Of a DNA stretch of 64,000 nucleotides, positions 2,038 through 40,938 are shown one piece after another. The translations under genes and the position numbers were made by a program. The notes under the pieces are model-generated. The model made no database searches, was not told where the DNA came from, and saw nothing but the letters and a program-made list of their open reading frames with translations. Each line of letters starts with the position of its first letter. Position 1 is the stretch's first letter. This DNA comes from Candidatus Levyibacteriota bacterium (GTDB lineage: Bacteria; Patescibacteriota; Microgenomatia; Levybacterales; UBA12049): contig PJMG01000001.1 in assembly GCA_003173895.1 (NCBI GenBank), forward strand, positions 15,576-79,575, read 5' to 3'.

Positions 2038-2113
2038 AGTGTCCTATAATATACAGGCCGTGTTGTAATTTGTCAAATAAGATGTAATAATTTGCTGTTC
2101 AAAAATATATCTG

Positions 2114-2186
2114 TGGACGATGAGGGACTTGAACCCCCGACATCTTCAGTGTAAATGAAGCGCTCTACCAACTGAGCTAATCGTCC
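2114..2186 (-). tRNA. tRNA-Val (anticodon TAC)
   Basis: The reverse complement folds as a cloverleaf: acceptor GGACGAT/ATCGTCC, D-arm GCTCAGTTGGTAGAGC, anticodon stem CTTCA/TGAAG with loop TTTACAC, T-arm GGGGGTTCAAGTCCCTC. Confidence 0.8.
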
Positions 2187-2242
2187 AAAAGATGCTATAA
2201 TTGTATAAGATTTTCGGTTTGCACGCAAACCTAAGTGATTTT

Positions 2243-4838: not shown

Positions 4839-4924
4839 TCTAAAAATTTGTACTTAAACTCCACTTACTAATTTCTTACCAAATTTTGAATGTCTTTTTT
4901 ACTATTTAATTCAAAATAAATCGT

Positions 4925-5149
4925 ATGGGTGAAGGAAATGGGAGAGGTTTTGCAGGAATGCCGCCTGAAAAACAGCGTTTAATTGCAAGTATGGGAGGAC
5001 GAAGAGCACATGAATTAGGTGTTGCACATACATTTACTACTGACGAAGCAAGAAAAGCAGGACGTAAAGGGGGTAAAACTTCTAGAAGGAAATCGATAAC
5101 TACGCAGAATATTTCTTTAGAACTAAATAATTCATTAACAGAACCTTAA
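4925..5149 (+). CDS. KGG-repeat general stress protein (YciG/GsiB-like)
   Basis: Repeated (E/K)AGRKGG motifs, EARKAGRKGGKTS. The gene is visibly GC-richer than its surroundings. Confidence 0.6.
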   Translation: MGEGNGRGFAGMPPEKQRLIASMGGRRAHELGVAHTFTTDEARKAGRKGGKTSRRKSITTQNISLELNNSLTEP

Positions 5150-5197
5150 TAATTTACGCCGCTGGACTAGAAGAAAAACTTATGCTAAAAATACTTC

Positions 5198-25457: not shown

Positions 25458-25539
25458 GGGTCGGTGGCGGAATTGGTATACGCGTATGGTTTAGGACCAT
25501 ATCCCGCAAGGGTTGGGGGTTCAAGTCCCTTCCGACCCA
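25458..25539 (+). tRNA. tRNA-Leu (anticodon TAG)
   Basis: Acceptor GGGTCGG/CCGACCC, anticodon stem TATGG/CCATA with loop TTTAGGA, long variable arm CCCGCAAGGG. Confidence 0.75.
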
Positions 25540-25551
25540 CTAATTAAACTT

Positions 25552-26460
25552 ATGGCAAATAAGAAAACACAAACTAAAAAAACCGAAGTTAAGAAGACAG
25601 AAGAGCAGTCAACTAAAACTGCTACTCAACCTGGTATGAAGCGTGAAGAGAATGGAAATATAGTTTTAACTATAGCCATTCCAAGTGCCAATATTAAAAA
25701 AGTCTATGAGGAAGAAATAGGAAATGCAGTAAAAAATGCTACTTTACCTGGATTTAGGCCCGGAACTGCACCTAGAGCCATGGTGGAACCTAAATTAGAT
25801 AAAGAGAAATTAAAAGAAGAAGCTTTGAAAAAACTATTACCGGAATTTTATTTAAAAGCTATTGATGAAAATAAATTAAAACCTGTTATCTCTCCTAGAA
25901 TTCATATAGAAAAATTAGATGATCCAGAAATGGGGAATAATTGGACATTTGAAGCGACTACTTGTGAAGGACCTGACGTGAATTTAGGGAACTATAAAGA
26001 TGATATAAAAAAACTAACTGCTAAAAGCAAAATTATAGTTCCAGGAAAAGAACAACCAAAACCTAGTTTAGATGAAATTTTAGCAATACTCGTAAAATCA
26101 GTAAAAGTACTTATGCCTCAAATTATATTAGATGCTGAAACTGAAAGACTTTTATCACAGCTTTTAAATGAAATTAAAAGACTAGGGTTAACTTTAGACC
26201 AATATTTAGGATCAAGTAAAAAAACTATTGAGGAGTTAAAAAAAGATTATGAAGAAAAAGCTAAAGCTGATTTAACTATAGAGTTTGCATTGGCTAAAAT
26301 AGCTGATACAGAAAAAATTGAAGTTGCTCCAGAAGAATTAAATGAAGCTTTAACTAAAGCCCAAAGTCCTGCGGAAAAAGAACAGCTTCAAAAAAATATG
26401 TATCTACTAGCTAGTGTTCTAAGACAGCAAAAAACTTTAGACTTTTTGAAAAACCTTTGA
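25552..26460 (+). CDS. tig: Trigger factor-like chaperone (N- and C-terminal domains; PPIase domain apparently absent)
   Basis: Ribosome-binding signature LPGFRPGTAP. C-terminal arm-like region. Only about 300 aa, so there is no room for an FKBP domain. The start is set at ATG 25552 because the track start overlaps the tRNA. Confidence 0.65.
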   Translation: MANKKTQTKKTEVKKTEEQSTKTATQPGMKREENGNIVLTIAIPSANIKKVYEEEIGNAVKNATLPGFRPGTAPRAMVEPKLDKEKLKEEALKKLLPEFYLKAIDENKLKPVISPRIHIEKLDDPEMGNNWTFEATTCEGPDVNLGNYKDDIKKLTAKSKIIVPGKEQPKPSLDEILAILVKSVKVLMPQIILDAETERLLSQLLNEIKRLGLTLDQYLGSSKKTIEELKKDYEEKAKADLTIEFALAKIADTEKIEVAPEELNEALTKAQSPAEKEQLQKNMYLLASVLRQQKTLDFLKNL

Positions 26461-26472
26461 TAGTATATTCTT

Positions 26473-27261
26473 GTGAATGACGATAAAAATAATAACGATC
26501 CTCTAAAAATTCAGCTTTTTGGTAAACCCACTAATGCGTCTACTAGTTCTTTAAAGAACCAAGTTTTAGGCCCTTCTAAACCTGTTCATAAAAAACCACC
26601 TAAAATAATTCATAATTATGAAACCTTATCAGAACCTGTAGACGAATTAAAAAAAGACTTAAATAAACAAGTGGGCGCTAAAGATAGTATTAAAAAAGCC
26701 TGGGAACAACTATTGGGTGCAGATAATCTTTTCTTTGGTAAAACTGGTGGGAGTAGTGGAGGACTAGAACCAGGACAAGAACTAGATTTAAAAGCATTAC
26801 AACAGCAGCAAGAACAAAAAAATGAAGAAGAGCAAAAAAAACATAATATAGATCCTCATATTAAATATAAGGATGAAATCTTACATGGTACTGAAAGAGC
26901 CATTCAAAAAGAACGTCAAGAAACTACTCGTCAAGTACAGGAATTAGTAGTAGACGTAAGACAAGCAGGTGCGGCAGCCCAAATGGACAGACAAGCTATT
27001 CAAGCTACTGAAGGTTCTATGCAAGATGTAGGTATATCTCATAAAAGACATTTACAACGATTATTATCCTGGCTCCAAGAGTTAAAAACTAAACTAGAAG
27101 ATGGAGAAAGTTGGGTAAATGCAGTACAAGGTAAGAAAAATATGAAAGGTAAAATCGGTGCTCCTGCTAAACAACAATCTAAACATCAGATGAATATTAA
27201 GAAAATGGGAGAAAAATATAGACAATCCGGAGAGCGTGCTCTTAATAGCTCTGGAAATTAG
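26473..27261 (+). CDS. Hypothetical coiled-coil protein
   Basis: ORF with charged, Q-rich composition. Confidence 0.4.
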   Translation: MNDDKNNNDPLKIQLFGKPTNASTSSLKNQVLGPSKPVHKKPPKIIHNYETLSEPVDELKKDLNKQVGAKDSIKKAWEQLLGADNLFFGKTGGSSGGLEPGQELDLKALQQQQEQKNEEEQKKHNIDPHIKYKDEILHGTERAIQKERQETTRQVQELVVDVRQAGAAAQMDRQAIQATEGSMQDVGISHKRHLQRLLSWLQELKTKLEDGESWVNAVQGKKNMKGKIGAPAKQQSKHQMNIKKMGEKYRQSGERALNSSGN

Positions 27262-27407
27262 TTTCACAATTTTATTGACTTATTTACTATTATAATGCTA
27301 AACTAATAAACATTATGAATTGGCAGTGCCTTCACTATACAACTATTAATCTCTCAGCTAGAGGGATGCATTTGTGTGGGAGGATACAAGTCTAAAAAGA
27401 AATTAAA

Positions 27408-27440
27408 TAAAAAATTCAACCTCCCAAAATGGGAGGTTTT
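27408..27440 (+). terminator. Intrinsic terminator/attenuator hairpin AACCUCCC-AAAA-UGGGAGGUU + U-run
   Basis: Perfect inverted repeat followed by a T-run, immediately before the ATG at 27450. Confidence 0.5.
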
Positions 27441-27449
27441 TTAATATTT

Positions 27450-28262
27450 ATGATAAGCGAAAACGAACAACTTAAACAAATCCAAGAAGCTAAAGCTAAT
27501 TTAAAAATAAGCTATGATAATTATTGGCGACGAAGACGTGAGGTAGGCAATCCTCACATGAGCCAAGAAATATACACATTAAGAGAAAAATTGGCACAAG
27601 CAGAGGAAGGATATAGACAAACGCTAGGTATAGATGGAATAATTGTTCCCTCACATTTTAATTCTTTTTCAAACGAAAGAAATAAAATTAGAGATTTACA
27701 AGATCGTTTTGGAATGGAAATCACTACTGTGGGAAGAATTGGTACATTGGCTTTAAATGGAGAAGATCCAATTAGAGCTGCTGAAATATTAGAAGAGCGT
27801 GGTATACACTATGCAATATTAGTATCTGGTCCTGGTGGATCATATATTATAGAAGGAAGTAAAGGACAAAAACATAGTAATATAAGAGAAGCTTTGTGGG
27901 GAGTAGAACCAGAAATTGGTTTAAGACGTCCTGATGTGTCAGGTTTCATTTTTAATATCGATGGTAGAAAATTTTTTGTTACAGACGACCCTACGGGGGA
28001 TATGCTATGGCCTTCGTTACATTTTACCTTAGATAGTGGATATCAAATGGGCGCAGAAGTATTAAACGTTAACTCTAATCTTAATGGAGCAAGAAATATT
28101 TTTAATAAAACCAGACGTCAAATAGGAATAAAAAGATTAGATGATAAATCTGCAGTCATTTTATTAGGTGAAAGTTTAAAGCCTCTAATATTAAACACAT
28201 TTAATATGCAAGCAAAAATTAATCAAATAGAAGCGCGTATTAAAGGCCATCAATTTAATTAG
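27450..28262 (+). CDS. Hypothetical protein
   Basis: ORF with start reassigned to ATG 27450, downstream of the hairpin. Confidence 0.45.
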   Translation: MISENEQLKQIQEAKANLKISYDNYWRRRREVGNPHMSQEIYTLREKLAQAEEGYRQTLGIDGIIVPSHFNSFSNERNKIRDLQDRFGMEITTVGRIGTLALNGEDPIRAAEILEERGIHYAILVSGPGGSYIIEGSKGQKHSNIREALWGVEPEIGLRRPDVSGFIFNIDGRKFFVTDDPTGDMLWPSLHFTLDSGYQMGAEVLNVNSNLNGARNIFNKTRRQIGIKRLDDKSAVILLGESLKPLILNTFNMQAKINQIEARIKGHQFN

Positions 28263-29566
28263 TTCCCGAAGAAGTTTTCGTCGAATTCCATTTGTTTTTC
28301 AATATTTTTTAGAGCGAAGTTTTCATTCATCCCATGCATCATGCCATCTTCGTTAGCAAAAGGAACTAATACCTGAGGTTTATTTAAGGTTTGATCAAAG
28401 AAAACTATGACAGGCTCTGTTCCACCTACATATCTATGCAAAACTTCTTGGTTAAATATTTCTGAAAGTATTTTTTTAGCTTTTAAAACATATTTATTAT
28501 CTACATTAATTCTGACTGGATAAGTAGCTGCTTCTGATTCAAACTCATACTCAATATAGTCTGGAATATTTTCTTTAATAAATTTTTTAAGTTGTGAAAG
28601 AATTTTTTCAGGCACTTGGTTATTTACCAACCTTATATTAAATTTAACTGTAGTTTTAGATGGAATACTGTTTCGATATCCCACTCCTGTATAACCTGAA
28701 TTAAAACCTGTAATTTCTATACTAGGTTTTTGTCCTGTTTGCTGATATAAGTCTAAACCTTCTTCTGTTAAAACAGTCTTAGTTCCAGTATTTTTTTTAT
28801 AAGTTTCTAAGTCAAATGGAATCATTACTGATTTATCTAAAGGTAAAACATCTTCATAAAATCCTTCTATCATTACTTTTCTTTCATCATCAAAAATTTT
28901 ATTAATAAATGTTATAGCTTCTTTTACAGAACTGGGCGCCGCCCCTCCATAAAGTCCGGAATGTAAATCATTATTAGAAGAGAAAAAGGTGAGAGTACAA
29001 TTTATGACTCCACGCGTTCCTAACTCTATCGTAGGTTGTCCTGCTGACATTTCACCATCTGAAATCATGATAAAATCGCATTTTAAAAGATTTTTATGCT
29101 CTTTTATAAAACCTTCAATAAATTCTGATCCTGTTTCTTCATTTCCTTCTGAAATAAATTTAATATTATATTTTAATTTTTTCTCTTTTATTAAGTTAAC
29201 AATGGTAATCATATGAACAAAAAGTTGTCCTTTATCATCCATAATCCCACGACCAAATAATTTCCCCTCTTTTTCTACTACTTCAAATGGTTCAGTGTCC
29301 CAACCATCCTCTTTAGATGCAGGTTGTACGTCATAATGGCCATAGATAAGACAAGTTTCAGCATTAGGGTTAACCACATATTCAGCAAAGAAAACAGGAT
29401 TTCCTTCAGCTTCAAAAGTCTGCGTTTTAAAACCTACTGATTCTAAATATTTAGAAAAAAATTCAACCGTTTTTGTAGCTTCTCCTTTTAAGGAAGTATC
29501 AGCAGAAACAGTTTTAAAAGAAATTAATTCCTTTACTAATTTTTTATATTCATCAAGCATTTGCAT
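28259..29566 (-). CDS. M20-family metallopeptidase (dipeptidase-like)
   Basis: GHYDVQP and FGRGIMDDKGQ motifs. Confidence 0.7.
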   Translation of the reverse strand: MQMLDEYKKLVKELISFKTVSADTSLKGEATKTVEFFSKYLESVGFKTQTFEAEGNPVFFAEYVVNPNAETCLIYGHYDVQPASKEDGWDTEPFEVVEKEGKLFGRGIMDDKGQLFVHMITIVNLIKEKKLKYNIKFISEGNEETGSEFIEGFIKEHKNLLKCDFIMISDGEMSAGQPTIELGTRGVINCTLTFFSSNNDLHSGLYGGAAPSSVKEAITFINKIFDDERKVMIEGFYEDVLPLDKSVMIPFDLETYKKNTGTKTVLTEEGLDLYQQTGQKPSIEITGFNSGYTGVGYRNSIPSKTTVKFNIRLVNNQVPEKILSQLKKFIKENIPDYIEYEFESEAATYPVRINVDNKYVLKAKKILSEIFNQEVLHRYVGGTEPVIVFFDQTLNKPQVLVPFANEDGMMHGMNENFALKNIEKQMEFDENFFGN

Positions 29567-29590: not shown

Positions 29591-30241
29591 TTATTTTATA
29601 GTAATAATATTTGGATCAGTACCTAATATCCACATTATAAAATATGGATATTGAGATAGGGTAGGATCAGTCTTAAAAGATGTAAGTCCCATTATTTCTA
29701 ATTCTTGGTGTATTTCAAATTCTTGAAGTTGGCCAAGCGCTTCCGCTGTTTGTTTATCATTTAATTCCTCATCACCAATTTCATCATAAATATAAGGATT
29801 ATACGAGCTTAGTACAGCACGTACTTCAGAATCCTCAGGGAATTTTGTTTCTAAGAGCAATTCCACTAATTTAAACGCACCAAAAAGTTTCAATCCTTTA
29901 ATAGCAGTTGCTAAAATATCTCTAGGATTAATTATCTTATCTTCAGAAGAAACTTCAGCATTAATTTCTCCATTATTTTTTGATACATATATATAAGAAT
30001 AGTTATTAGGTTGAGAAGAATTATTTGTACTTATTAATACTTTTTTAGATGAAACTTCATCCAACTGGTTCGCTGGAATTACGGATAAATATAAATGTTG
30101 GATAGTTCCATTTTCTAAATTTTGGTTAATGGTAATTATTCCTGTATCTTTCCTTAATACAGATATATCTCTATTAGATTCAACTAAATTTTTTAAATTT
30201 GTAATTGCTGTTTCTATATTCAAGCTTTCTGGATTTGACAT
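29591..30241 (-). CDS. Hypothetical protein
   Basis: ORF only. Confidence 0.4.
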   Translation of the reverse strand: MSNPESLNIETAITNLKNLVESNRDISVLRKDTGIITINQNLENGTIQHLYLSVIPANQLDEVSSKKVLISTNNSSQPNNYSYIYVSKNNGEINAEVSSEDKIINPRDILATAIKGLKLFGAFKLVELLLETKFPEDSEVRAVLSSYNPYIYDEIGDEELNDKQTAEALGQLQEFEIHQELEIMGLTSFKTDPTLSQYPYFIMWILGTDPNIITIK

Positions 30242-30319
30242 AAGCGTATTATATTAAATGTAATTCCACTTGTAAATTTAGTAGTTGACAGATAAACAAG
30301 CTGTTTGATAACATAATAT

Positions 30320-30429
30320 TCATAAATATGAAATCTACACAAATGTATATTGTCCTTTTTATTAACCGCTAAGGCGGAGGGACTTTTTCGTATAGAAAAG
30401 TTTTCAACCGCCAAATAGGCGGTTTTTTT
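30320..30429 (+). promoter_or_regulatory. Leader-peptide transcription attenuator, copy A (three hairpins ending in an intrinsic terminator)
   Basis: Hairpin 1 GUCC..CCGC-UAAG-GCGG..GGAC, hairpin 2 CUUUUU/GAAAAG, terminator AACCGCC-AAAU-AGGCGGUU + U7 at 30407-30429. An alternative GGCGG:CCGCC antiterminator is possible. Nearly identical to copy B. Confidence 0.55.
30328..30372 (+). CDS. Putative leader peptide MKSTQMYIVLFINR (14 aa)
   Basis: ATG 30328 to TAA 30370-30372. The stop codon sits in the loop of hairpin 1. The C-terminus is conserved with the copy B peptide. Confidence 0.4.
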   Translation: MKSTQMYIVLFINR

Positions 30430-30435
30430 GTGGAT

Positions 30436-31605
30436 ATGAAAGATAATTTACTTAAATTAAATTTAAAAAAAGATTATTCAGAACGTAAAAATATTGGTAC
30501 ATTTACCTCTATTTTTAGATCTCCTATGTTACAAGAATATATAGACTATTATTTAAATAAAAATTTTGTAGATAAAAATGCTTACGAATCTTTACATTAT
30601 TTAAAAGAAGATGTTTTAAGTAATTTTTTCCATTCTTTATTTGAGATAAAAGAAGGGAAAATTCTTACTACCTCTGGATCAACTGAATCTATATTATTAG
30701 CCTTATTTTATGCTAGAGAAAAAGCAAAAGTAGAAAAAGGTATTAATAAACCAAATATTATTGTAGGAGAGAATACTCATTATAGTATTCAGAATTGTGC
30801 ACGCTTCTTAAAAATACATGTAAAATATGCAGGATTAAATGATAAGTATGAAATAAATATTAAAGATGTAGAAAAAAGAATAGATAAAAATACTATTTTA
30901 TTAGTGGGTACGTTGGGTACTACGGAATTAGGAGTCGTTGATAATATTTTATTATTAGATAAATTAGCTATCGAATATAATATTCCTTTACATATTGATG
31001 CGGCTATAGGAGGCTTTATTCTCCCATTTTTAGAAAAGAATAATGATTATTCATTCTCTAGTTTAAAAAGTTTATTTTCTATGAATATATCCGGACATAA
31101 ATTTGGACTAGCCCTACCGGGTAGTGGGATACTCTTATTAAGAGAAAAACATTTAATCGATAATCATGGTGGTGAAATAGAATACTTAAGTTCAGGTAAA
31201 AGTATAGTAGAAAATCTTTTAATTTCATCTAACTCTCTTGGAGTTTTAAGTCTAGGTATAAATATATTAAGTTTAGGAAAAGAAGGATATAAAAATTTAG
31301 CTGAGAATTATTTAAAAACAAAAAAAGTATTACAGAGAGAATTAGACAATTTAAAGGTAGATTATTTTTCAGGATCTAACTACATGCCACAGTTATTTTT
31401 ACACCCAGAAAATGTTAAGGAGATATCAAAAAAACTTGCGGAAAATGGATGGATTCAACACACCTATAAGCCAAAAGGATTACAAAAAGAAGGAATTCGT
31501 ATTGTAATAAAGAATAATCAAGAAATGCTTTTAGAAAAAGACTTATTAGATGACTTAAAATTTTGGAATAAAGAGATGAAAGGAGAAAATTATATTTATG
31601 AATAA
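30436..31605 (+). CDS. PLP-dependent group II decarboxylase (MfnA/GadB-like)
   Basis: PLP-Lys motif NISGHKFGLA. Fold-type I pattern TTSGSTESILLAL...HIDAAIGG. Start taken as ATG 30436; GTG 30430 is the alternative. Confidence 0.7.
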   Translation: MKDNLLKLNLKKDYSERKNIGTFTSIFRSPMLQEYIDYYLNKNFVDKNAYESLHYLKEDVLSNFFHSLFEIKEGKILTTSGSTESILLALFYAREKAKVEKGINKPNIIVGENTHYSIQNCARFLKIHVKYAGLNDKYEINIKDVEKRIDKNTILLVGTLGTTELGVVDNILLLDKLAIEYNIPLHIDAAIGGFILPFLEKNNDYSFSSLKSLFSMNISGHKFGLALPGSGILLLREKHLIDNHGGEIEYLSSGKSIVENLLISSNSLGVLSLGINILSLGKEGYKNLAENYLKTKKVLQRELDNLKVDYFSGSNYMPQLFLHPENVKEISKKLAENGWIQHTYKPKGLQKEGIRIVIKNNQEMLLEKDLLDDLKFWNKEMKGENYIYE

Positions 31606-32959
31606 AAATGAAATACAAAATCATATAGTATTTCAAAATACTCCAGATGTATTAGACCCTGCTCAGATGAGCGGAGCTACTGGTAGAACGGCAGAATTAA
31701 TTATGAATTTATTAGCCAGAGCAAATCATATGGCTCTTACTGGAGATACTGTAATTAATTCTTCAAATGTCCCTGATGATTTTATTCAATATTTATCAGC
31801 TGTTACTGGGGAATATCCAGATATAGTAAAAACTCAAATAGAACCTCCTTTATTTACAAAAGATTTATTAGATGCTTTACCTACTGGATCTTTTGAAGGA
31901 TATTTACTTGATCCCTATATTCAGTCAAAAACTATTGCTCTATATAGTCAAGAACAAAATATACCCATGGCATATACTCCTTCTGAAACTATTTTAAATG
32001 GAGTTACCGATTTAGCAAATAATAAAAAATATTTTAGAGAAACTGCAAATCAATTAGGTATACCATTAATCCCTGATCAAGCAACGTTCACTACAGAAGA
32101 CTTTTCTGGGTTGCGAAAAAAAATTATAGATATGATGAAAAAACATAAGAGTGTATTTATACAAGCTAACAGTTCTGGTGGTGGCATTGGTAATATTGAT
32201 ATTAGAGGAAATACTTGGCAATCAAAATTAGGATTAGGTAAAGAGAAAGTTTTAGAAGAATTGAAAAAATGGATGAAAGAAATGAAAGACGCTGGATCGG
32301 ATACAATTCTTCTAGCTCCATATGTTGAATTACTTTCTAGTCCTACTGTTAGTGGATTTATTCCTAAGGAAGGCGAACCGATAATTTATGGTATTTTTGA
32401 CCAAACTTTAGATCCTACTTCTCATGACTATCAAGGATTTGAATGGCCAGCCAATGATCAATATTCAAAGATTTATGGATCTACTATGATTAAGGGAGCA
32501 AAAAAATGGTTTAAGCATCTACAAAAGTTAGGGTATGTAGGTCCTTCCGACGTGGATTACATTATAGGATACAATGATGCATTAGGAGAAGTAATAGGAG
32601 CAAGTGAATCAAATACTAGATGGGACGCATTTAGATTCGCTCTTCAACATGCAGGAAGATTACAGAGATGGAATTTAAGGACACTTGAAGGAATTGATGT
32701 TTTAAATGCTCCTTATATTAAATCTAATGATCATATACATACAAACGCAGCTTCAACTACAGAAATAGTTCAAAGATTACGTAATGGTAGAATTCCTCTG
32801 TTAGGATTAGATCATCAACAAATGGGAATTATTGTTATGGTACCTCCACAACCTACTGATAGACGAGGAGACCAACAATTAGCGTTGGCTGTTATTGGAC
32901 CAGATAAAAAAACAACGAAAAAACTTTTTGAAGATGCACAAATTTTACTGCATAGTTAA
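31598..32959 (+). CDS. ATP-grasp-like enzyme (putative amino-acid/peptide ligase)
   Basis: Gly-rich loop FIQANSSGGGIGNIDIR. The C-terminal ESNTRWD resembles the ATP-grasp E-x-N-x-R motif. Moderate confidence. Confidence 0.45.
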   Translation: MNKNEIQNHIVFQNTPDVLDPAQMSGATGRTAELIMNLLARANHMALTGDTVINSSNVPDDFIQYLSAVTGEYPDIVKTQIEPPLFTKDLLDALPTGSFEGYLLDPYIQSKTIALYSQEQNIPMAYTPSETILNGVTDLANNKKYFRETANQLGIPLIPDQATFTTEDFSGLRKKIIDMMKKHKSVFIQANSSGGGIGNIDIRGNTWQSKLGLGKEKVLEELKKWMKEMKDAGSDTILLAPYVELLSSPTVSGFIPKEGEPIIYGIFDQTLDPTSHDYQGFEWPANDQYSKIYGSTMIKGAKKWFKHLQKLGYVGPSDVDYIIGYNDALGEVIGASESNTRWDAFRFALQHAGRLQRWNLRTLEGIDVLNAPYIKSNDHIHTNAASTTEIVQRLRNGRIPLLGLDHQQMGIIVMVPPQPTDRRGDQQLALAVIGPDKKTTKKLFEDAQILLHS

Positions 32960-32964
32960 ATAAA

Positions 32965-34059
32965 ATGATTAAAATAAATAGGCAAAGACTTATAGAAAAT
33001 TTTATAGCTCTTGTTAAAACAAACAGTACTTCAGGGAATGAAAAAGATATTAGTAATTTTTTAAAAAGTAATTTAGAAAATTTAGGTGGTAAAGTAACTT
33101 TTGACTCTTATGGGAATCTTTTATCTTTTTTTGAAGGTAAAGGAGAAACAATAATATTAAATTGCCATTTAGACACAGTTCACCCAGGTGAAAATATAAG
33201 AACCATTCAAAAAGGAGATAGACTCTTTTCAGATGGTAAAACCATATTAGGAGCAGACGCAAAAGCAGGATTAGCGATAATTTTAGAGATTCTTAATTTA
33301 AGAAAAGAAAAAAAAATAAATTGTCCTCCTTTACAAATTATCCTCACTAAAGAAGAAGAATCTGGTCTTATTGGCGCTAGGAATTTAGACTTTAGTTTAG
33401 TTAAAGGGAAATATGGTTTGGTGTTTGATGGAGATTTTGGACCTGACAATATTACAATTTATGCTCCAGGTTATTATTTTTTTGAATGTTCAGTTTTAGG
33501 TAAAGCAGCTCATGCTGGAATGGAACCAGAAAAAGGCGTATCTGCTATTTTAGGTGCGGCAAAATTAATAAATAAAATTCCCTTTGGACGAATAGATTCC
33601 GAAACTACTCAAAATATCGGTATTATACAGGGTGGAGACGGTACTAATATAATTTCTAATAAAGTAATTTTTAAAGGAGAAATTAGGGGTAGAAATAAAA
33701 CTAAATTATTAAAGCAAATAAAAAAATTAAAGTTTATTATAGAAAAATTTTTAAGTGAAAATAAAAATATCAAAGTAAAATTAAATGGACAAATTATATT
33801 CGATCCTTACGCTTTTAGTCTAAAAAACAAATTTTTAAAAAAAATTCAATTAGCATATGAACCAATAGGATTAAAACCTAAATTTTTACCTTCAGGTGGA
33901 GGTACAGATGCTAATATTTTTAATAATAAGGGTTTTAATCTATTTCCTATAGGTTTTGGTGCATATAATACTCATACAACTTCTGAGTATCTAATTCTAT
34001 CTGAAATGGAAAAAACACTAATTTTTTGTATTAATCTTTTAAAAATAAAAAGAAGATAA
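32965..34059 (+). CDS. M20-family peptidase, PepT (tripeptidase)-like
   Basis: CHLDTVHPG, GADAKAGLAI and TKEEESGLIGA motifs. Confidence 0.7.
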   Translation: MIKINRQRLIENFIALVKTNSTSGNEKDISNFLKSNLENLGGKVTFDSYGNLLSFFEGKGETIILNCHLDTVHPGENIRTIQKGDRLFSDGKTILGADAKAGLAIILEILNLRKEKKINCPPLQIILTKEEESGLIGARNLDFSLVKGKYGLVFDGDFGPDNITIYAPGYYFFECSVLGKAAHAGMEPEKGVSAILGAAKLINKIPFGRIDSETTQNIGIIQGGDGTNIISNKVIFKGEIRGRNKTKLLKQIKKLKFIIEKFLSENKNIKVKLNGQIIFDPYAFSLKNKFLKKIQLAYEPIGLKPKFLPSGGGTDANIFNNKGFNLFPIGFGAYNTHTTSEYLILSEMEKTLIFCINLLKIKRR

Positions 34060-34088: not shown

Positions 34089-34227
34089 TTGACATCATAT
34101 TTTAAATACACTATAATCTCATTATGAGTTCGAAATACGCACAAGTTTTTGTCCTTATTATTAACCGCTAAGGCGGAGGACTTTTTATATAAAAAAGTTT
34201 CAACCGCCAAAAAAGGCGGTTTTTTTG
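34089..34227 (+). promoter_or_regulatory. Sigma70 promoter (TTGACA-17-TATAAT) plus leader-peptide attenuator, copy B
   Basis: Perfect -35 and -10 at 34089-34094 and 34112-34117. Same three-hairpin element as copy A. Terminator AACCGCC-AAAAA-AGGCGGUU + U7 ends at 34227. Confidence 0.55.
34124..34171 (+). CDS. Putative leader peptide MSSKYAQVFVLIINR (15 aa), leaderless
   Basis: The ATG lies 7 nt after the -10 box. The TAA falls in the loop of hairpin 1. The C-terminal VL(I/F)INR-stop is conserved with copy A. Confidence 0.4.
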   Translation: MSSKYAQVFVLIINR

Positions 34228-34239
34228 TAAAATGAACTT

Positions 34240-35331
34240 ATGTTAGATCAAATAAAATTATTAACCAATATTTTACTCTCTATTCATTCTGTAAAAACAG
34301 AATTTGAGAATTTAAATTTAGCCTTAGAAGTGGCTGAAACAGAACTCTCTGAATTTAAAATAGAAAAATTTACCAGTAATAATTTCCCCAGCCTTTTAGT
34401 CTATAATCAACACACTTTACCTGCCAAATTTAAGGTAATTTTAAATGCTCATTTGGATGTCACACCAGCTCCTGATGAATTTTTCCATGCAAAAGAGAAA
34501 AGTGGAAAACTTTATGGTCGTGGAGTATATGATATGAAAGCAGCCGCAGCTGTAATGATTTTAGTTTTTAAAGAAATGGCTAAGAAGGTTAATTATCCGC
34601 TAGGACTTCAATTAGTAACTGATGAAGAACTAGGTGGCCATAATGGAACTAAATATCAAATAGAAAAAGGCGTAAAAAGCGATTTCGTTTTATGTGGAGA
34701 TGCTTCTAATTTAGAAGTAGTTAATAAATCTAAAGGCTTTGCTTGGATGAAGATAAGTTGTAAAGGTGCTACTTCTCATGGAGCTTATCCATGGGAAGGA
34801 GATAATGCTTTGTGGAAAATAAATCATTTTCTAAATAAATTAAAGCAAGCATTTCCAATACCTGAAAAAGATTCATGGGTTACTACTATTAATTTAGCTA
34901 AAATAGAAACATCTAATAATACATTTAATGAAATACCATCTGATTCTACAGTTTGGTTGGATATAAGATATATTCCTGAAGAAAAAAATATCTTAAGGAA
35001 AAAGATTCTAGATCTTATACCTAAAGATTTTTCTTATAAATTCGTATTAAATGAATCTTATGCATATCTAGATCCTAAGAATGAGTATATTCAGAAACTT
35101 CAAAACGCAAGCGAGAAAGTGATAAAAAAACCTTTAACTATCTCTGCTCACAATGGTGGATCTGATGCTAGACTTTATACTAATAAAGATATGGATAGCT
35201 TAGAATTCGGGCCTAAAGGTGGGAGATTACCTGATGGTAACGAATGGATAGATTTTAAAAATCTGGAAGAGTATCATAAAATTTTAAAAGAATTTTTAAA
35301 ATCAATAAATAATTTTTCATTAAACAATTAA
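34240..35331 (+). CDS. M20-family peptidase (ArgE/DapE-like), tandem paralogue 1
   Basis: NAHLDV, YGRGVYDMKA and LVTDEELGG motifs. Confidence 0.7.
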   Translation: MLDQIKLLTNILLSIHSVKTEFENLNLALEVAETELSEFKIEKFTSNNFPSLLVYNQHTLPAKFKVILNAHLDVTPAPDEFFHAKEKSGKLYGRGVYDMKAAAAVMILVFKEMAKKVNYPLGLQLVTDEELGGHNGTKYQIEKGVKSDFVLCGDASNLEVVNKSKGFAWMKISCKGATSHGAYPWEGDNALWKINHFLNKLKQAFPIPEKDSWVTTINLAKIETSNNTFNEIPSDSTVWLDIRYIPEEKNILRKKILDLIPKDFSYKFVLNESYAYLDPKNEYIQKLQNASEKVIKKPLTISAHNGGSDARLYTNKDMDSLEFGPKGGRLPDGNEWIDFKNLEEYHKILKEFLKSINNFSLNN

Positions 35332-35337
35332 CTGACC

Positions 35338-36453
35338 ATGACTATGGACGAAGATATTTTAGAATTAACTAAAAATCTAATAAGTTTACATACTGTGTCT
35401 AAAAATTCAGGAGTAAATGCTGACGCTTTAGCTTTTATAGAACATTATTTAAAGGATTCACATTTATTTTTTAAAAAATACCATAAAAATGGAATCTATA
35501 ATTTAGTTATTTCTAATAAACCAGTAACAAATAATTTTGATCTTATTTTGCATGGACACATAGATGTAATCCCTGCTACAAATCCAGAAGATTTTATTCC
35601 TAGAGTAGGGAACGGAAAATTATTTGGTCGCGGATCCATGGATATGAAAGGAGGATTGGCAGCCTTAATAGTTTTGATGAGAGAAATAGGAAAAGGAAAT
35701 ATTCAGATAGATAAAAATATTGCACTTTTTATAACTGCAGATGAAGAGTTGGGTGGAGCTAATGGAACTAAATATTTAATTCAACAGTTAGGCTATAAAT
35801 CTAAATTTTTTTTAACAGGCGAGGGAGTAAAAGAAAATTTTCCTATTTATAATAAGAGTAAAGGAGTTCTCTCTTTAAAAGTAAAATCTAAGGGAAAAGG
35901 AAAACATGCATCTCTACCTTGGTTAGGAGAAAGCGCTATAGATAATTTAATAAATTTCTATCATGATATTAGAATTTTATTTCCTAAAAAAGATAATAAA
36001 AATAATTGGTATTCTACCTGTTTATTAAGTACTATATATGGTGGAGAAGCTATTAATTCTGTATCAGAATATGCAGAAGGTAGTATAGACATACGCTTTA
36101 CAGAAGAATTCAAATCAGCAGATCAAGTTTTAGAAAAAATTTATAGTATTCAAAAAAATCATCCTGGAATTAGCTTGGAAGTAGTAGTAAAAAATGAAAT
36201 GTTAAATACTTCTAGAGATAATAACTATATTAAAATATTAGCAAATGCTGTTAAAAAAAATATCAATCCATGGAATAATTATTTTTTAAGTGCTCATGGA
36301 GTTTCAGATGCTAGATTTGCTGCTGAAAATGGAATACCTGGTGTAGAATTTGGTCCTTCTGGCAATAATAGTCATAGTACTAGTGAATATGTAAAAATTG
36401 ATAGTTTATCTGTGTTCTATGATATCTTAAAAGATTTTATTAAAAATATTTAA
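35338..36453 (+). CDS. M20-family peptidase (ArgE/DapE-like), tandem paralogue 2
   Basis: HGHIDVIP, FGRGSMDMKG and ITADEELGG motifs. Confidence 0.7.
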   Translation: MTMDEDILELTKNLISLHTVSKNSGVNADALAFIEHYLKDSHLFFKKYHKNGIYNLVISNKPVTNNFDLILHGHIDVIPATNPEDFIPRVGNGKLFGRGSMDMKGGLAALIVLMREIGKGNIQIDKNIALFITADEELGGANGTKYLIQQLGYKSKFFLTGEGVKENFPIYNKSKGVLSLKVKSKGKGKHASLPWLGESAIDNLINFYHDIRILFPKKDNKNNWYSTCLLSTIYGGEAINSVSEYAEGSIDIRFTEEFKSADQVLEKIYSIQKNHPGISLEVVVKNEMLNTSRDNNYIKILANAVKKNINPWNNYFLSAHGVSDARFAAENGIPGVEFGPSGNNSHSTSEYVKIDSLSVFYDILKDFIKNI

Positions 36454-36460
36454 ATTATTT

Positions 36461-37531
36461 ATGATTGACCAAATTAAATCTCTAAGCAGTTTACTTATTT
36501 CTATTCCTTCTGTAAAAGGAGATAGAAAAAGTTTAGACTTAGTTTTAACAGTAGCTAAACAAGAACTTTCAGACTTTAAAGTAAAAGAATTTGAAAGTAA
36601 TAATATTCCTAGTTTACTAGTTTATAATACTGAAACTTTACCTGAAAAATTTAAAGTTTTAATTAGTGCTCATTTAGATGTCGTTCCTGCTAAAAAAGAT
36701 CAATTTAATGCGGTTGAGAAAAATGGCCGGCTTTATGGTCGTGGAGCATATGATATGAAAGCTGGTGCAGCTGCCAGTATATTAGTATTTAAAGAAGTAG
36801 CTAAAAAAGTGAATTATCCCTTTGGCCTTCAATTAGTAACTGATGAGGAAATTGGTGGATATGATGGTGCTTTATATCAAGTGAAACAGGGAGTTAAAAC
36901 TGATTTTGTTATAGCCGGTGATTCATCTAACTTCTCGATGGTAACAGAAGCTAAAACACTCTTCTGGATAAAAGTTAGTGCACCGGGTAAAACAGAACAT
37001 GCAGGTTATCCCTGGTTGGGAGACAATGCAATTGATAAGATGGTAGATTTTGCTAAAAGAGTAAAAGAAGAATTTCCCACTTTAAAAGAAGATAAATGGA
37101 CCAATACAGTAACACTCTCTAAAATAGAAACTAATAATATAGCAATTAATAAAATACCTGCTGACTGTAGTACTACGTTTGATATTCGTTGTATTCCTGA
37201 AGATAGAGAAAAAGTTTTTAATAAATTTATCAGTTTAATTCCTAAAAATTTTAAATATGAAGTTTTATTAGATGAACCCGCAGAATTAACTCCTAAAGAT
37301 AGTCCATATTTACAGAAATTAGTCTCTACAGTTGAAAAAGTGACTGGAAAAAGACCAGAAATGATTACTAAACACGGTCTATCTGATGTACGTTTTTTTA
37401 TGGAACAAGGAGCACATGGTACCCAATTTGGTCCCAAGGGAGCAGGACATCATAGTGATGATGAGTGGGTAGACCTTAAAAATTTAAATGACTACTATCA
37501 TATATTAAAAAACTTCCTCCTTTCACTTTAA
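36461..37531 (+). CDS. M20-family peptidase (ArgE/DapE-like), tandem paralogue 3
   Basis: SAHLDVVP, YGRGAYDMKA and LVTDEEIGG motifs. Very similar to 34240..35331. Confidence 0.7.
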   Translation: MIDQIKSLSSLLISIPSVKGDRKSLDLVLTVAKQELSDFKVKEFESNNIPSLLVYNTETLPEKFKVLISAHLDVVPAKKDQFNAVEKNGRLYGRGAYDMKAGAAASILVFKEVAKKVNYPFGLQLVTDEEIGGYDGALYQVKQGVKTDFVIAGDSSNFSMVTEAKTLFWIKVSAPGKTEHAGYPWLGDNAIDKMVDFAKRVKEEFPTLKEDKWTNTVTLSKIETNNIAINKIPADCSTTFDIRCIPEDREKVFNKFISLIPKNFKYEVLLDEPAELTPKDSPYLQKLVSTVEKVTGKRPEMITKHGLSDVRFFMEQGAHGTQFGPKGAGHHSDDEWVDLKNLNDYYHILKNFLLSL

Positions 37532-37564
37532 CTTAAAAATATCCTTTGGTATAATCAAACAACG

Positions 37565-37637
37565 GACGGTTAGCTCAGTTGGTTAGAGCGTTACATTGAC
37601 ATTGTAAAGGTCACTGGTTCGAGTCCAGTACCGTCCA
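37565..37637 (+). tRNA. tRNA-Val (anticodon GAC)
   Basis: Acceptor GGACGGT/ACCGTCC, D-arm GCTCAGTTGGTTAGAGC, anticodon stem TTACA/TGTAA with loop TTGACAT, T-arm ACTGGTTCGAGTCCAGT. Confidence 0.8.
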
Positions 37638-37662
37638 CTAAATAATTTGCTACAATACTATT

Positions 37663-38545: not shown

Positions 38546-38684
38546 TTGCGTCGATAAATTATTCATGTTAATATATTTTTATGATTAAAAATATCGCAAT
38601 GAATTGTCCAACTACAAAGTCAACTTCTGATTAGGAGGTTTTCTTTTTGTGGAAAAGTATAACCTCCGAAAGGAGGTTTTTTTT
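38546..38684 (+). promoter_or_regulatory. Promoter (TTGCGT-17-TGtTAATAT) plus leaderless leader-peptide attenuator, copy C
   Basis: Antiterminator GGAGGUU (38634-38640) pairs with AACCUCC. The competing terminator AACCUCC-GAAA-GGAGGUU + U8 lies at 38661-38684. The leader-peptide stop codon overlaps the antiterminator 5' arm. Confidence 0.5.
38581..38634 (+). CDS. Putative leader peptide MIKNIAMNCPTTKSTSD (17 aa), leaderless
   Basis: ATG is 7 nt after the -10 box. The last seven sense codons include three Thr and two Ser. TAG lies at 38632-38634. Confidence 0.35.
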   Translation: MIKNIAMNCPTTKSTSD

Positions 38685-38692
38685 GTGCCTTT

Positions 38693-39880
38693 ATGGAATT
38701 AAAAATACAACCATCATTACAACCATTACATGAATTAGCAGAAAGCTCTTTTTCTTATGGTAGAGCACAGGCTAAAATACAACCTTTAGAGCAAGCTAAT
38801 AGAAATTCTCGTGTAATAGCTAGAAAATTAGGAGAGATCGTAGAGGGATTACAATTATCTATCGACATTCCTGAAACAAGAAGAATAATTAGTCATGATA
38901 ATGGCAATGCCTTTGCTGAAGTAATTTTAAACGGAAAAAAACATTTTATTATGGCTAGAACACCATTAGATGGAAGAAACTTTAGTGAATCTCTACAAGA
39001 ACAGAAGCCTGAAGTAACTATCGTAAGTGGTCCATGTTTATTTAGTGCCGATGCAGTACAAGCTATTTCTCATGAAGGAGAAAACTTTGCCCTTACTAGG
39101 CGCGGAGAAATAATTAATCAAACTATTTCTCATATAAATGTTGATAATAATTTATCCTTGTATGAAGCAGAAGCTATTTCTAGATTAAGTACTTTAATTC
39201 ATGATTTAGTACAAAATAACCAACATATTAAACACGTCGCGCTTAATATTCCAGAAGCAGAATATTATCTTTTTGGTCTGGAAGCATTTGAACAAGGACA
39301 TCTCTCTTCTCATCAATTAAGAGAATGGTTTAATAATGTGGATTATAGACATGATAGGCAAATTAAATTAATTAAAAATAGAATTCAAAGAGGTACAAAT
39401 GTAGAAATTTATGAATCTTCACCTCTTTTACCTGTTAAAAACTATATACGTATTAAAGTATTAAATAATGAATTACCAACCTTTTCTGAAGCTGTTGAAT
39501 TATTATCAGAAAATAATGAATTATGGAGAGATCTCTTTGCTGTAAGTAAAATTAACAATTGGCAAGATATTATTGATTTATCTTATGTATATGCTGAACT
39601 TGAAGCAGGAGAACAACACGGTGGAAAACCTACATTCGCTCTAGTTATAGAAAATCCAACTGAAAATAAAATATTTGCTAATGCTAAAAAGGTAGCTATA
39701 GAACTTCAGAAAATACGCTCAAGAATTTTTAATGTTGTGGCCATTTATCCTCATGAATTAATTCTTCCTGTAGGAGATAATGCTAATAGAACTATGTATC
39801 ATATAACAGAAACTACTGATGATAAATTTTCATTATTTAGACAAATTGTTAATATATATAGGAGAGGAGGATCTGTATGA
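38693..39880 (+). CDS. Hypothetical protein
   Basis: ORF, first gene downstream of attenuator C. Overlaps the next gene by 4 nt. Confidence 0.45.
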   Translation: MELKIQPSLQPLHELAESSFSYGRAQAKIQPLEQANRNSRVIARKLGEIVEGLQLSIDIPETRRIISHDNGNAFAEVILNGKKHFIMARTPLDGRNFSESLQEQKPEVTIVSGPCLFSADAVQAISHEGENFALTRRGEIINQTISHINVDNNLSLYEAEAISRLSTLIHDLVQNNQHIKHVALNIPEAEYYLFGLEAFEQGHLSSHQLREWFNNVDYRHDRQIKLIKNRIQRGTNVEIYESSPLLPVKNYIRIKVLNNELPTFSEAVELLSENNELWRDLFAVSKINNWQDIIDLSYVYAELEAGEQHGGKPTFALVIENPTENKIFANAKKVAIELQKIRSRIFNVVAIYPHELILPVGDNANRTMYHITETTDDKFSLFRQIVNIYRRGGSV

Positions 39881-40938
39881 AAAAGAATTTAAATTATCAA
39901 AATGCAATATCCATGATTCGGGGCTCTTCTATATATTCTACAGGAGGTGGATTTGCTTACAGTGGGCAAAAAAGAATGTTTAATAATCTTTTTAAAAAAG
40001 TAAATTCCATTAAATTAATTTCTATAGATGAATTAAAAGATAATGATTATATTTGTACTGCATATGCCGTAGGCTCTGCTGGAAATACAGACATTGACTT
40101 ATCACCAGCATTAAGACAAGGCCTTCAAGTCTTACAAAATTTTACTGGTATTAAACCCAAAGCTATTTTTGCTGGAGAAACGAATATTGATATTATTGCT
40201 TCTCAATCGGCAGTAGCTTTAAATTTACCTATATTAGACGCAGATAGTAATGGCGGTAGGGCTGTACCAGAAATACAAATGGATAATTTTGTAATTTATG
40301 ATAAACCCATTACTCCTGTGGTAGTTGTAACTTTAGACGGAGATGTTGCTATTTTGCAACAAACTAAAAATCCATATAATATAGAAAATTTTGTGAGATC
40401 TATCGCAGGTAATTCAAAAATTGGTATGGTAGCAGTATTAGATCATTTAATTCAAGTTAAACTAGCAAAGAAAATATTAACACATGGTATTTTTAGTAGA
40501 TCACTTAAATTGGGTCAATTAATTCAAGAGAATTATAATAATCAAGATTTGTTAGAAAAAATAATTAGAGAAATTAACGGGCAGTTATTAATTAAAGGAA
40601 AAGTTTTTAAATCTACTTTAAAAAGTAATTTAAAAGAAGGTTTTCTAAATGGGGATTATTTTATAAAAGATAGAAAAGGAAATGTGGTAAAAGTTTATGC
40701 TAAAAATGAGAATATAATTTGTTGGAAAAATAATAGAGTATTTGCTACAAGCCCTGATAGAATTTTGACTATTGATACTAAAACATTTTTAGGTATTCAT
40801 AACAGTCAATTAAAAGAAGATGAAGAAGTAGCTGTTATAGTAGCTAAAGCAAGTGAAATGTGGAGAAGTAAGAAAGCTCTAGAATTATTTGAACCTAGAC
40901 ATTTTGGTTTTTTATTTAAACCTAAATTATTAAAGTAA
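39877..40938 (+). CDS. Hypothetical protein (Gly-rich N-terminal GSSIYSTGGGFAYSG motif)
   Basis: ORF, translationally coupled to the upstream gene. Followed 38 nt later by thrS. Confidence 0.45.
   Translation: MKKNLNYQNAISMIRGSSIYSTGGGFAYSGQKRMFNNLFKKVNSIKLISIDELKDNDYICTAYAVGSAGNTDIDLSPALRQGLQVLQNFTGIKPKAIFAGETNIDIIASQSAVALNLPILDADSNGGRAVPEIQMDNFVIYDKPITPVVVVTLDGDVAILQQTKNPYNIENFVRSIAGNSKIGMVAVLDHLIQVKLAKKILTHGIFSRSLKLGQLIQENYNNQDLLEKIIREINGQLLIKGKVFKSTLKSNLKEGFLNGDYFIKDRKGNVVKVYAKNENIICWKNNRVFATSPDRILTIDTKTFLGIHNSQLKEDEEVAVIVAKASEMWRSKKALELFEPRHFGFLFKPKLLK

Follow-up and report, generated by a model that had tools for sequence, protein, structure and literature searches.

What governs the genes that follow position 30285 in a 64,000-nucleotide (nt) stretch of the Candidatus Levyibacteriota bacterium genome (GenBank contig PJMG01000001.1, positions 15,576 to 79,575 of the forward strand), and to which signal would they respond? 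The whole stretch is called the window below, and positions are counted from its first letter unless a related locus is named. A first-pass annotation, made from the sequence alone, had placed a leader-peptide transcription attenuator (copy A) before an operon for a pyridoxal phosphate (PLP) decarboxylase, an ATP-grasp ligase and an M20 peptidase (operon A), with a second copy (copy B) near 34089; the M20 genes behind copy B are called operon B. The computational analysis reported here indicates that copy A and its paralogue copy B are very probably ribosome-mediated transcription attenuators sensing the supply of hydrophobic aminoacyl-tRNAs, a reading drawn from sequence comparison and modelled RNA folding. 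Promoter-like sites, a leader open reading frame (ORF), alternative 1:2, 2:3 and 3:4 pairings, an intrinsic terminator, candidate codons in the appropriate position and a structure maintained by compensatory change are all present, as are conservation and a match between leader codons and downstream genes in relatives. The elements of the two copies are as follows.

30285..30314, plus strand: promoter of copy A, with -35 TTGACA (30285-90), an 18-nt spacer with TG, and -10 TAACAT (30309-14)
30328..30372, plus strand: leader ORF A, ATG at 30328 and TAA at 30370-30372, product MKSTQMYIVLFINR
30352..30383, plus strand: hairpin 1 of copy A (regions 1:2), outer stem GUCCUU (30352-57) / AGGGAC (30378-83)
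30373..30412, plus strand: antiterminator of copy A (regions 2:3), GGCGG (30373-77) with CCGCC (30408-12), enclosing hairpin 2
30384..30400, plus strand: hairpin 2 of copy A, UUUUUC-GUAUA-GAAAAG
30406..30429, plus strand: intrinsic terminator of copy A (regions 3:4), AACCGCC-AAAUA-GGCGGUU (30406-24) and a U run to 30429
34089..34117, plus strand: promoter of copy B, TTGACA-17-TATAAT, matching the consensus at 12/12 positions
34124..34171, plus strand: leader ORF B, MSSKYAQVFVLIINR-stop, with V8 F9 V10 L11 I12 I13 at -8 to -3
34151..34226, plus strand: RNA switch of copy B (hairpin 1, hairpin 2, terminator)

In copy A, 13 nt separate the -10 box from the ATG, without a Shine-Dalgarno sequence, and the 5' untranslated region of the transcript is very short. 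The candidate regulatory codons of the leader ORF, I8 V9 L10 F11 I12 (AUU GUC CUU UUU AUU), lie at -7 to -3 from the stop. Within hairpin 1, an inner stem (CCGC 30366-69 / GCGG 30374-77) closes the loop UAAG, which contains the stop UAA, and an asymmetric internal loop of 8 nt lies on the 5' side. Region 1 corresponds to codons 9-14, and GGCGG at 30373-77 has two alternative partners, CCGC at 30366-69 or CCGCC at 30408-12. The latter pairing, extended by GGGA/UUUC, forms the antiterminator (duplex -12.8 kcal/mol), mutually exclusive with both hairpin 1 and the terminator. Hairpin 1 can be assigned the role of anti-antiterminator and possibly of a pause hairpin. Hairpin 2 is a spacer stacked inside the antiterminator, and it is retained in homologues though its sequence is different in each. 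The terminator has a 7-bp GC-rich stem followed by U7 (-10.8 kcal/mol) and stops 6 nt short of the decarboxylase start codon (ATG, 30436). The ORF, hairpins and terminator described in the first-pass annotation were all found where it had placed them, with the correction that the terminator loop is AAAUA, not AAAU, and that its stem starts at 30406. The RNAfold minimum-free-energy structure of copy A consists of exactly these three hairpins (-29.4 kcal/mol, z = -3.8 against 200 dinucleotide shuffles).

Copy B (34089-34226), anticipated by the same annotation, has the same parts and is 82% identical to copy A. A 3-nt indel between the copies leaves the reading frame intact, and the window contains precisely two occurrences of the 19-mer TTAACCGCTAAGGCGGAGG, against a chance expectation of 0.01. 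The -10 box of copy B ends 6 nt 5' of the ATG, so leader ORF B is probably leaderless. Its hairpin 1 is composed of GUCCU (34151-55), CCGC-UAAG-GCGG (34165-76) and AGGAC (34177-81), hairpin 2 occupies 34182-34196, and the terminator AACCGCC-AAAAAA-GGCGGUU (34202-34221, U run to 34226; -11.1 kcal/mol) lies 13 nt before the start codon. The ORFs of copies A and B have 14 and 15 codons, respectively, with about 100 nt from AUG to U run.

The effect of a ribosome on these pairings was modelled by partition-function folding in which 27 nt were kept single-stranded (the first base of the A-site codon with 15 nt on its 5' side and 11 nt on its 3' side) and the mask was shifted one codon at a time along each leader. 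The antiterminator pairing probability, P(AT), and the terminator probability, P(T), are thermodynamic calculations. With the A site at M6 to I12 of copy A, P(AT) was 0.98-1.00 for a transcript ending before region 4, in line with the earlier proposal that a stall on the hydrophobic codons favours the antiterminator. With the A site at N13, R14 or the stop codon, P(AT) fell to 0.32, 0.03 and 0.00, respectively, with P(T) at 1.0. Region 2 lies under the modelled ribosome when the latter occupies the stop codon, where P(AT) does not exceed 0.12 and P(T) is 1.0. Copy B and 23 further leaders behaved alike; the second Thr leader of locus L096 was left out of these results, the automatic terminator choice having fallen on hairpin 1. 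According to the P(AT) profile, the permissive stall window would start three codons 5' of the stop. The Ile, Val, Leu and Phe codons of copy A (-3 to -7) and copy B (-3 to -8) fall within it, as do the enriched codons of all short-type leaders (-3 to -9).

Leaders were also found upstream of homologous proteins. The 453-aa (amino acid) ligase of operon A has 13 homologues of 39-50% identity, and the decarboxylase-ligase-M20 cassette is conserved among relatives, one of which (L088) has the ligase and M20 genes without the decarboxylase. In all six cassette loci where the upstream gap is readable, it contains a promoter, an ORF beginning with ATG, an antiterminator and a terminator.

L088: leader MIRNMFTILLFITH, stop in the loop of CCC-ACUAAA-GGG, terminator CCCGC/GCGGG
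L093: cassette leader MTTQNTIILGLLLNLA
L087: cassette leader MLNSFGILFMNLIGLLIVGDAQGGRF
L089: leader MNSLFLLSTILFILFLRRGMVWEEKMERN, 10-bp 1:2 pairing and 11-bp 2:3 pairing
L094: cassette leader MLGISLFIIALFIFVLNWTEGSMLKI
L095: cassette leader MNRQVNIFFTLPFLGLITRALGWEVVYLR

The peptides of these cassette leaders are not alignable, hydrophobicity aside, and have no common motif, and the sequences of hairpin 1 and hairpin 2 are wholly different between homologues. The pairing cores vary too (GGCGG/CCGCC, GCGGG/CCCGC, GGGAGG/CCUCCC), and across these differing cores the 2:3 and 3:4 complementarity is kept, which is the compensatory change that the first-pass annotation had proposed to look for. 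Among 12 protein-found leaders, the six of the cassette and six before M20 genes (L096, L098, L099), the region 2:3 duplex was compared with 1000 dinucleotide shuffles, giving p values of 0.001-0.066 each and a Fisher combined p of 1.2e-11. When pairs were counted in a hand alignment of 12 short-type leaders, fitted to the structure, 226/226 pair cells were canonical, against 45-65% with the partner slid, and 16 of the 27 pair columns contained double changes; MAFFT put the terminator arms out of register. Among decarboxylase homologues with accessible DNA, the closest one (P0002, locus L001) has another gene context and a 74-nt upstream gap, with no leader. In L089, five tandem copies of GAAATTAA lie between region 2 and the terminator (3823-3862), the leader stop being inside the first copy.

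Further leaders were obtained by pattern scans of GTDB representative genomes (one scan) and JGI metagenomes (one scan), in which the two GC cores only were fixed. Chance matches in GC-rich genomes, the 3' ends of rpsI genes and tRNA genes with a terminator behind them made up most of the hits; some ten matches were real, and every one of these came from a contig of low GC content (0.30-0.42). They include the following.

L002 and L008: leader MKFGLLLGLLLSR, Leu-rich, before leuA-(136 aa)-leuC-(251 aa)-leuD-leuB
L010: leader MKHNGSILVLLITR, rich in Ile, Leu and Val, before ilvE-ilvB (NCBIfam)
L018: leader MKAIFSFILVILLIVR, before ilvE (NCBIfam)
L079: leader MIQQSIVVVIPLR, before a glycosyltransferase gene and then valS

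The L039 leader was considered doubtful, its ORF being in another frame. The ilvE gene behind MKAIFSFILVILLIVR (L018, 4670-5763) is split into ORFs of 80 and 284 aa, which is a frameshift or an assembly error; the L018 record is labelled Gammaproteobacteria and has a GC content of 0.42.

As to what would be sensed, the strongest evidence, at the level of sequence, is that in relatives the composition of the leader agrees with the gene behind it. The second leader of L093, MTLQIKSINIINS, is Ile-rich and stands immediately before ilvA. In L096, tandem M20 genes have one leader apiece (1983-6744): Ile-rich MKNLSIIRVIIIR before the orthologue of the first M20 gene of operon B (B1, 58% identity), Phe-rich MIATFTFFFTFTL before that of the second (B2, 42%) and Leu-rich MKHTVMQLLLLDR before that of the third (B3, 72%). 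A second B1 orthologue (61%), in L099, has the Ile-rich leader MNFLSKIGIQIITR (370-460). L098 contains Val-rich MKSLLTCVVVTLA before another M20 paralogue and MNKQFATMIVLINR, the leader most closely related to copies A and B, before an operon whose last gene is a B1-like M20; the leaders of L098 lie at 1653-1745 and 4662-4745. Cassette A leaders are rich in Ile, Leu and Phe in all lineages. In the window, the three M20 genes are fused behind one leader with V, F, V, L, I and I, and the simplest reading is that operon B is under multivalent control. The set of amino acids sensed by copies A and B is thus one that we infer from the relatives, and these leader-gene matches back the branched-chain or hydrophobic amino-acid supply sensor proposed at the outset. 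Together with masked folding and the layout of the homologues, they uphold the 1:2 / 2:3 / 3:4 topology.

Translation of the leader ORFs is plausible in this genome. Only 9 of the 49 window ORFs of at least 150 aa have a Shine-Dalgarno-like motif, and a -10-like box ends 5-8 nt before the ATG at many first genes (among them 98, 6951, 11319, 37663, 43913 and 52185; 29566 and 30241 on the minus strand), so that leaderless initiation seems normal here. In the leader ORFs the -10 box ends 6-13 nt before the ATG, the geometry of ordinary genes. All 28 distinct tabulated leaders have their ATG placed like an ordinary gene start and an ORF that covers region 1. With initiation of this type, tight coupling between the first ribosome and RNA polymerase would be expected.

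The genes behind the two copies, and a divergent neighbour, are listed next.

30436..34059, plus strand: operon A (decarboxylase, ATP-grasp ligase, M20 peptidase)
30436-31605, plus strand: group II PLP decarboxylase, MfnA/GAD-like, below every equivalog cut-off
31598-32959, plus strand: predicted PGM1-type ATP-grasp peptide ligase, 453 aa, from profile and structure matches
32965-34059, plus strand: PepT-like M20 peptidase, last gene of operon A
34240..37531, plus strand: operon B, three tandem DapE/ArgE-like M20 hydrolases, B1 (34240-35331), B2 (35338-36453) and B3 (36461-37531)
28259-29566, minus strand: M20 dipeptidase, divergent, upstream of operon A

The 453-aa product has no Pfam or NCBIfam match. 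A PDB profile match to 8ynd_A (E = 5e-12) and a Foldseek search with its AlphaFold model (pLDDT 91.7), which returned 8ynd (E = 1.7e-23, TM 0.73-0.82) and next 3wvq and BesA (8yi6), identify it by modelled structure as a PGM1-type ATP-grasp peptide ligase, having the ATP-grasp fold with an N-terminal pre-ATP-grasp domain, and so agree with the earlier ATP-grasp assignment. One homologue of the ligase carries PF18604 (a faint match), and no paper describing PDB 8YND was found in a literature search. The named homologues of window proteins belong to the Microgenomates group (Woesebacteria, Roizmanbacteria, Daviesbacteria and Dojkabacteria). A tRNA-Val(GAC) gene (37564-37638, plus strand) begins 32 nt 3' of the last M20 gene of operon B, with a promoter-like site at 37528-37555; read-through of operon B into this tRNA, which serves one of the sensed amino acids, is possible.

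Regarding the order of events, we infer the dynamics of ribosome, pairing and read-through from the arrangement of the parts. Transcription would start a few bases before the AUG, and a ribosome would load on the leaderless or nearly leaderless nascent RNA. With Ile, Val, Leu and Phe tRNAs charged, the ribosome would reach the UAA and hide GGCGG (region 2), leaving CCGCC (region 3) free to pair with region 4, and polymerase would terminate 6 nt short of the first gene, at the U run. A stall with the A site at -3 to about -8 would cover region 1 and expose region 2, whose GGCGG would pair with the nascent CCGCC around hairpin 2; the terminator would be blocked and the operon transcribed. With no ribosome, hairpin 1 would sequester region 2 and favour termination, a lock that is weak in both copies. 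Polymerase may also pause at hairpin 1 with its trailing UUUUU and so be synchronised with the ribosome. From this stall model, the signal would be a multivalent one, the supply of Ile, Leu, Val and Phe aminoacyl-tRNAs. As output, the M20 hydrolases encoded by operon B and by the third gene of operon A would be induced along with the conserved decarboxylase/ligase pair; these hydrolases plausibly release the sensed amino acids from peptides or N-acyl amino acids.

Several observations weigh against this interpretation. For a truncated transcript without a ribosome, P(AT) is 0.46 in copy A and 0.98 in copy B; the antiterminator is thus favoured at equilibrium in B and partly in A, and the state in which absence of translation leads to termination is poorly locked. 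Of the two conditions under which termination had been proposed, the ribosome at the stop codon is therefore borne out by the model (P(T) 1.0) and the untranslated leader only weakly. At full-length equilibrium, moreover, the terminator wins for stalls at L10 to I12 of copy A (P(T) 0.93-0.94). Because of these equilibrium limits a kinetic argument is needed, namely that regions 2 and 3 come together while region 4 is still untranscribed; in the trp leader, read-through likewise needs the antiterminator to form first. The covariation table, coming from a hand-made alignment fitted to the structure, is weak evidence alone. Ile, Leu, Val and Phe account for 45% of leader codons versus 29% of the window proteome (p = 4e-11), but frame +1 of the leaders reaches 39% and the leader frame is not significantly higher (p = 0.10), so that composition alone proves little and U-rich RNA explains part of it. 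Copies A and B have single codons of four amino acids, not runs, and their sensitivity to any one of the four may be low. Finally, there is no obvious metabolic reason why starvation should induce a PLP decarboxylase and an ATP-grasp ligase.

Other explanations of the locus were considered. The first-pass annotation had also suggested a SpeFL-like arrest peptide. In an arrest of the SpeFL/TnaC type, the ribosome would halt on the stop codon through the combined action of nascent ...LFINR and a small molecule, for instance the substrate of the decarboxylase, and the operon would be switched on. A PLP decarboxylase does lie downstream, and the ending ...INR-stop, which loosely resembles the ...FFNAR-stop ending of E. 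coli SpeFL given in that annotation, recurs in copies A and B, L057 and L098. However, CGC-UAA belongs to the hairpin CCGC-UAAG-GCGG, and since all the pattern-found leaders (leu, ilv and L079) end in ...CGC-UAA within the same hairpin, the arginine before the stop is explained as a property of the RNA. The identical ending also precedes leuA and ilvE, and leaders of orthologous cassettes end in ...ITH, ...NLA, ...GGRF, ...MERN, ...MLKI or ...YLR, with no conserved arrest motif. A ribosome at the stop codon is moreover predicted to mask region 2, so that arrest would favour termination, and control here would be by an intrinsic terminator, not by Rho, through which SpeFL and TnaC systems act. 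The arrest-peptide explanation is consequently extremely unlikely. If the small ORF were incidental and hairpin 1 or the antiterminator were stabilised by a ligand or protein, the device would be a riboswitch or a protein-binding attenuator. That would account for the conservation of hairpin 1 with its asymmetric 8-nt internal loop and for a terminator/antiterminator pair typical of riboswitch expression platforms. Such a device is very unlikely, given that the ORF has a gene-like ATG in 28/28 leaders and always lies over region 1, that no aptamer-like core is conserved between hairpins of completely different sequence, and that the downstream gene tracks the amino-acid composition of the leader, not its RNA sequence; searches of the window and 15 related loci with Rfam at gathering threshold returned tRNA and rRNA only, and no riboswitch family.

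The structural likeness of the second gene of operon A to PGM1-like peptide ligases (8ynd, 3wvq) raises the question of whether the small ORF encodes a functional product, either a substrate or primer of the ligase or a small hydrophobic protein, with the terminator setting a transcript ratio. PGM1 ligates onto ribosomally made peptides, and precursors of ribosomally synthesized and post-translationally modified peptides are usually encoded by a small ORF with a partial terminator behind it. A near-identical leader nevertheless precedes operon B, which is without a ligase, and the same device precedes leu, ilv and thrS operons, which makes this reading unnecessary; peptides of orthologous cassettes are not alignable beyond hydrophobicity, and the antiterminator that matches the terminator is positioned for control by a ribosome. 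A functional product is accordingly given very little weight. It is exceedingly improbable that the 14-residue peptide of copy A does double duty, serving also as acceptor for the PGM1-type ligase as the ribosomal peptide does in pheganomycin biosynthesis; the partner of the peptide would then be made or trimmed by the decarboxylase and the M20 enzyme, and such an attenuator, if it existed, would link production of a small molecule derived from the peptide with amino-acid starvation in an epibiotic cell of the candidate phyla radiation (CPR). The last alternative involves no regulation, only a plain terminator or insulator beside a promoter, with ORF and pairing arising by chance. Terminator B lies 143 nt after the last stop of operon A and could stop its read-through. 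The gene 5' of copy A (29591-30241) is on the minus strand, so terminator A ends no upstream gene. Each terminator separates a consensus promoter from the gene to be driven by it, the layout recurs before orthologues of only 39-50% protein identity, and the antiterminator complementarity is non-random, all of which render a plain terminator very improbable. Attenuation by a ribosome that responds to hydrophobic aminoacyl-tRNAs therefore remains the preferred reading of both copies.

Two further elements of this kind were recognised in the window.

38569-38686, plus strand: third attenuator-like element, -10 TAATAT ending 6 nt before ATG 38581, ORF MIKNIAMNCPTTKSTSD with TAG at 38632-34
27275-27443, plus strand: fourth candidate, ORF MNWQCLHYTTINLSARGMHLCGRIQV (27315-27395), region 2 GGGAGG

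In the third element, the stop lies at the edge of the hairpin AACUUCU-GAUUA-GGAGGUU, Thr codons occur at -3, -6 and -7, and the terminator AACCUCC-GAAA-GGAGGUU with U8 (38661-86) lies 6 nt before an operon encoding a 395-aa protein (38693-39880), an S-Me-THD/DUF917-like protein (39877-40938) and threonyl-tRNA synthetase (ThrRS; 40977-42740). Thr-rich leaders stand at the syntenic place in L057 (MKRNFVVNCTCTTTS) and in L096, where two tandem attenuators (10051-10251), ending CTTTTS, precede an operon for a 267-aa protein, a creatininase-like protein and ThrRS. These leader sequences suggest Thr-sensing control of the thrS operon. L057 also has, at 8400-8520 (minus strand), the Phe-rich leader MSKQFFGFFFFTSLREVA, leaderless (TATAAT plus 7 nt), with the terminator ACCUCCC-AAUC-GGGAGGU; the genes behind it encode products of 76, 125, 314 and 329 aa, the 125-aa one resembling a ThrRS editing domain. 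The gene order M20 dipeptidase, HDIG, DUF5665, Thr leader is common to L057 and the window, and ThrRS-IF3-L35 genes lie downstream of the M20 cluster in L088 and L096.

The terminator of the fourth candidate, AACCUCCCA-AAA-UGGGAGGUU (27418-38), lies about 6 nt before an ORF (27450-28262; 270 aa) with no family match. Its 2:3 complementarity is -13.8 kcal/mol, and no residue is obviously enriched in the leader. Trigger factor, DUF5660 and an attenuator-controlled gene follow one another in the window (25513-28262), in L088 (2603-4061) and in L098 (46-1617), a shared gene order around trigger factor and DUF5660 that helps to recognise orthologous loci. Strong upstream complementarity (-11.5 to -13.8 kcal/mol) was found only at four window terminators, lying at most 18 nt before a gene start; at the remaining terminator-like sites of the window it was -2.3 to -8.5 kcal/mol. 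Judged from sequence, the 64 kb contain at least two attenuators and probably four, and relatives have up to five within one 14-kb stretch. Contrary to the earlier remark that one would not expect such a device in a CPR-like genome, this lineage makes repeated use of it.

CPR bacteria (Patescibacteria) have tiny genomes, their gene regulation is little known, and in the window a single old mechanism is used densely. Of greater use than this mechanism are the leader peptides as built-in labels for uncharacterised genes. Since the Ile-, Phe- and Leu-rich leaders of L096 and the Val-rich leader of L098 each mark one M20 paralogue, it can be predicted that each paralogue liberates the corresponding amino acid. 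In the same way, the Thr-rich leaders label a three-gene operon ending in thrS, and the cassette of decarboxylase, ATP-grasp ligase and PepT-like peptidase becomes tied to the supply of Ile, Leu and Phe. These labels provide testable hypotheses on amino-acid sensing and scavenging in cells some of which may lack amino-acid biosynthesis. The order -10 box, AUG, short ORF, stop in a hairpin, terminator gives a search pattern for the whole regulon.

Copies A and B resemble in several respects the classical leaders of E. coli and Salmonella, those of ilvGMEDA, ilvBN, leu, phe, thr, his and trp. In these enterobacterial systems a leader ORF rich in the regulatory residue overlaps mutually exclusive 1:2, 2:3 and 3:4 pairings, the terminator lies just before the first gene, a stall gives read-through, and a mixture of Ile, Leu and Val codons makes control multivalent. 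Copies A and B differ from them in having only 14-15 codons, a stop codon within the loop of hairpin 1, no Shine-Dalgarno sequence and a leaderless or nearly leaderless ORF; Phe would be sensed along with the branched-chain residues, and no homology is detectable by sequence or covariance model. Their targets are hydrolases, a ligase and a decarboxylase, not a biosynthetic pathway. Phe_leader (RF01859, 32.1 bits versus 55) and Trp_leader (RF00513, 12.9 versus 41) stayed below their gathering thresholds, and since the former match rests mainly on AUGAAA and the terminator, the elements were not taken as members of that family. The Thr-rich thrS leaders (window 38581-38686, L057, L096) can be likened to the attenuator of E. 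coli pheST, formed by the pheM leader peptide, in that the target is a non-biosynthetic aminoacyl-tRNA synthetase; they involve another amino acid and another phylum, with no sequence relationship.

A different sensor with a similar logic is CodY of Lactococcus and Bacillus, a protein repressor that binds branched-chain amino acids (BCAA) and GTP and controls peptidases and Opp. In both cases BCAA scarcity would induce peptide-degrading enzymes (review PMC6123439), the sensor in copies A and B being instead a translating ribosome on an RNA switch. Leader-peptide attenuation beyond Proteobacteria has been described in Staphylococcus, Listeria, Corynebacterium and other Actinobacteria (PMC5794164, PMC5864092, PMC11857589, PMC10272879, PMC1262725). 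Examples include the Leu-rich attenuator peptide of S. aureus ilv-leu (PMC5794164), the three-hairpin attenuator/upstream ORF of Corynebacterium ilvBNC (PMC11857589, PMC10272879), with a layout as in copies A and B, and the attenuators of an actinobacterial survey (PMC1262725). The staphylococcal and actinobacterial BCAA attenuators control BCAA biosynthesis, unlike copies A and B. In a preprint, mycobacterial polycysteine leaderless short ORFs are presented as Cys-responsive attenuators (bioRxiv 10.1101/834739). As there described, they resemble copies A and B in being leaderless short ORFs at the 5' end of operons that sense through ribosome stalling, in their case one amino acid, in a genome rich in leaderless mRNAs, as that of the window appears to be, and differ in sensing Cys. 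A full-text literature search of incomplete coverage found no report of attenuation or leader peptides in Patescibacteria/CPR. The mechanism proposed for copies A and B is therefore a known one, and what is unusual is its compactness (the stop codon sits within a hairpin loop), its scavenging targets together with a ligase and a decarboxylase, and the apparent size of the regulon.

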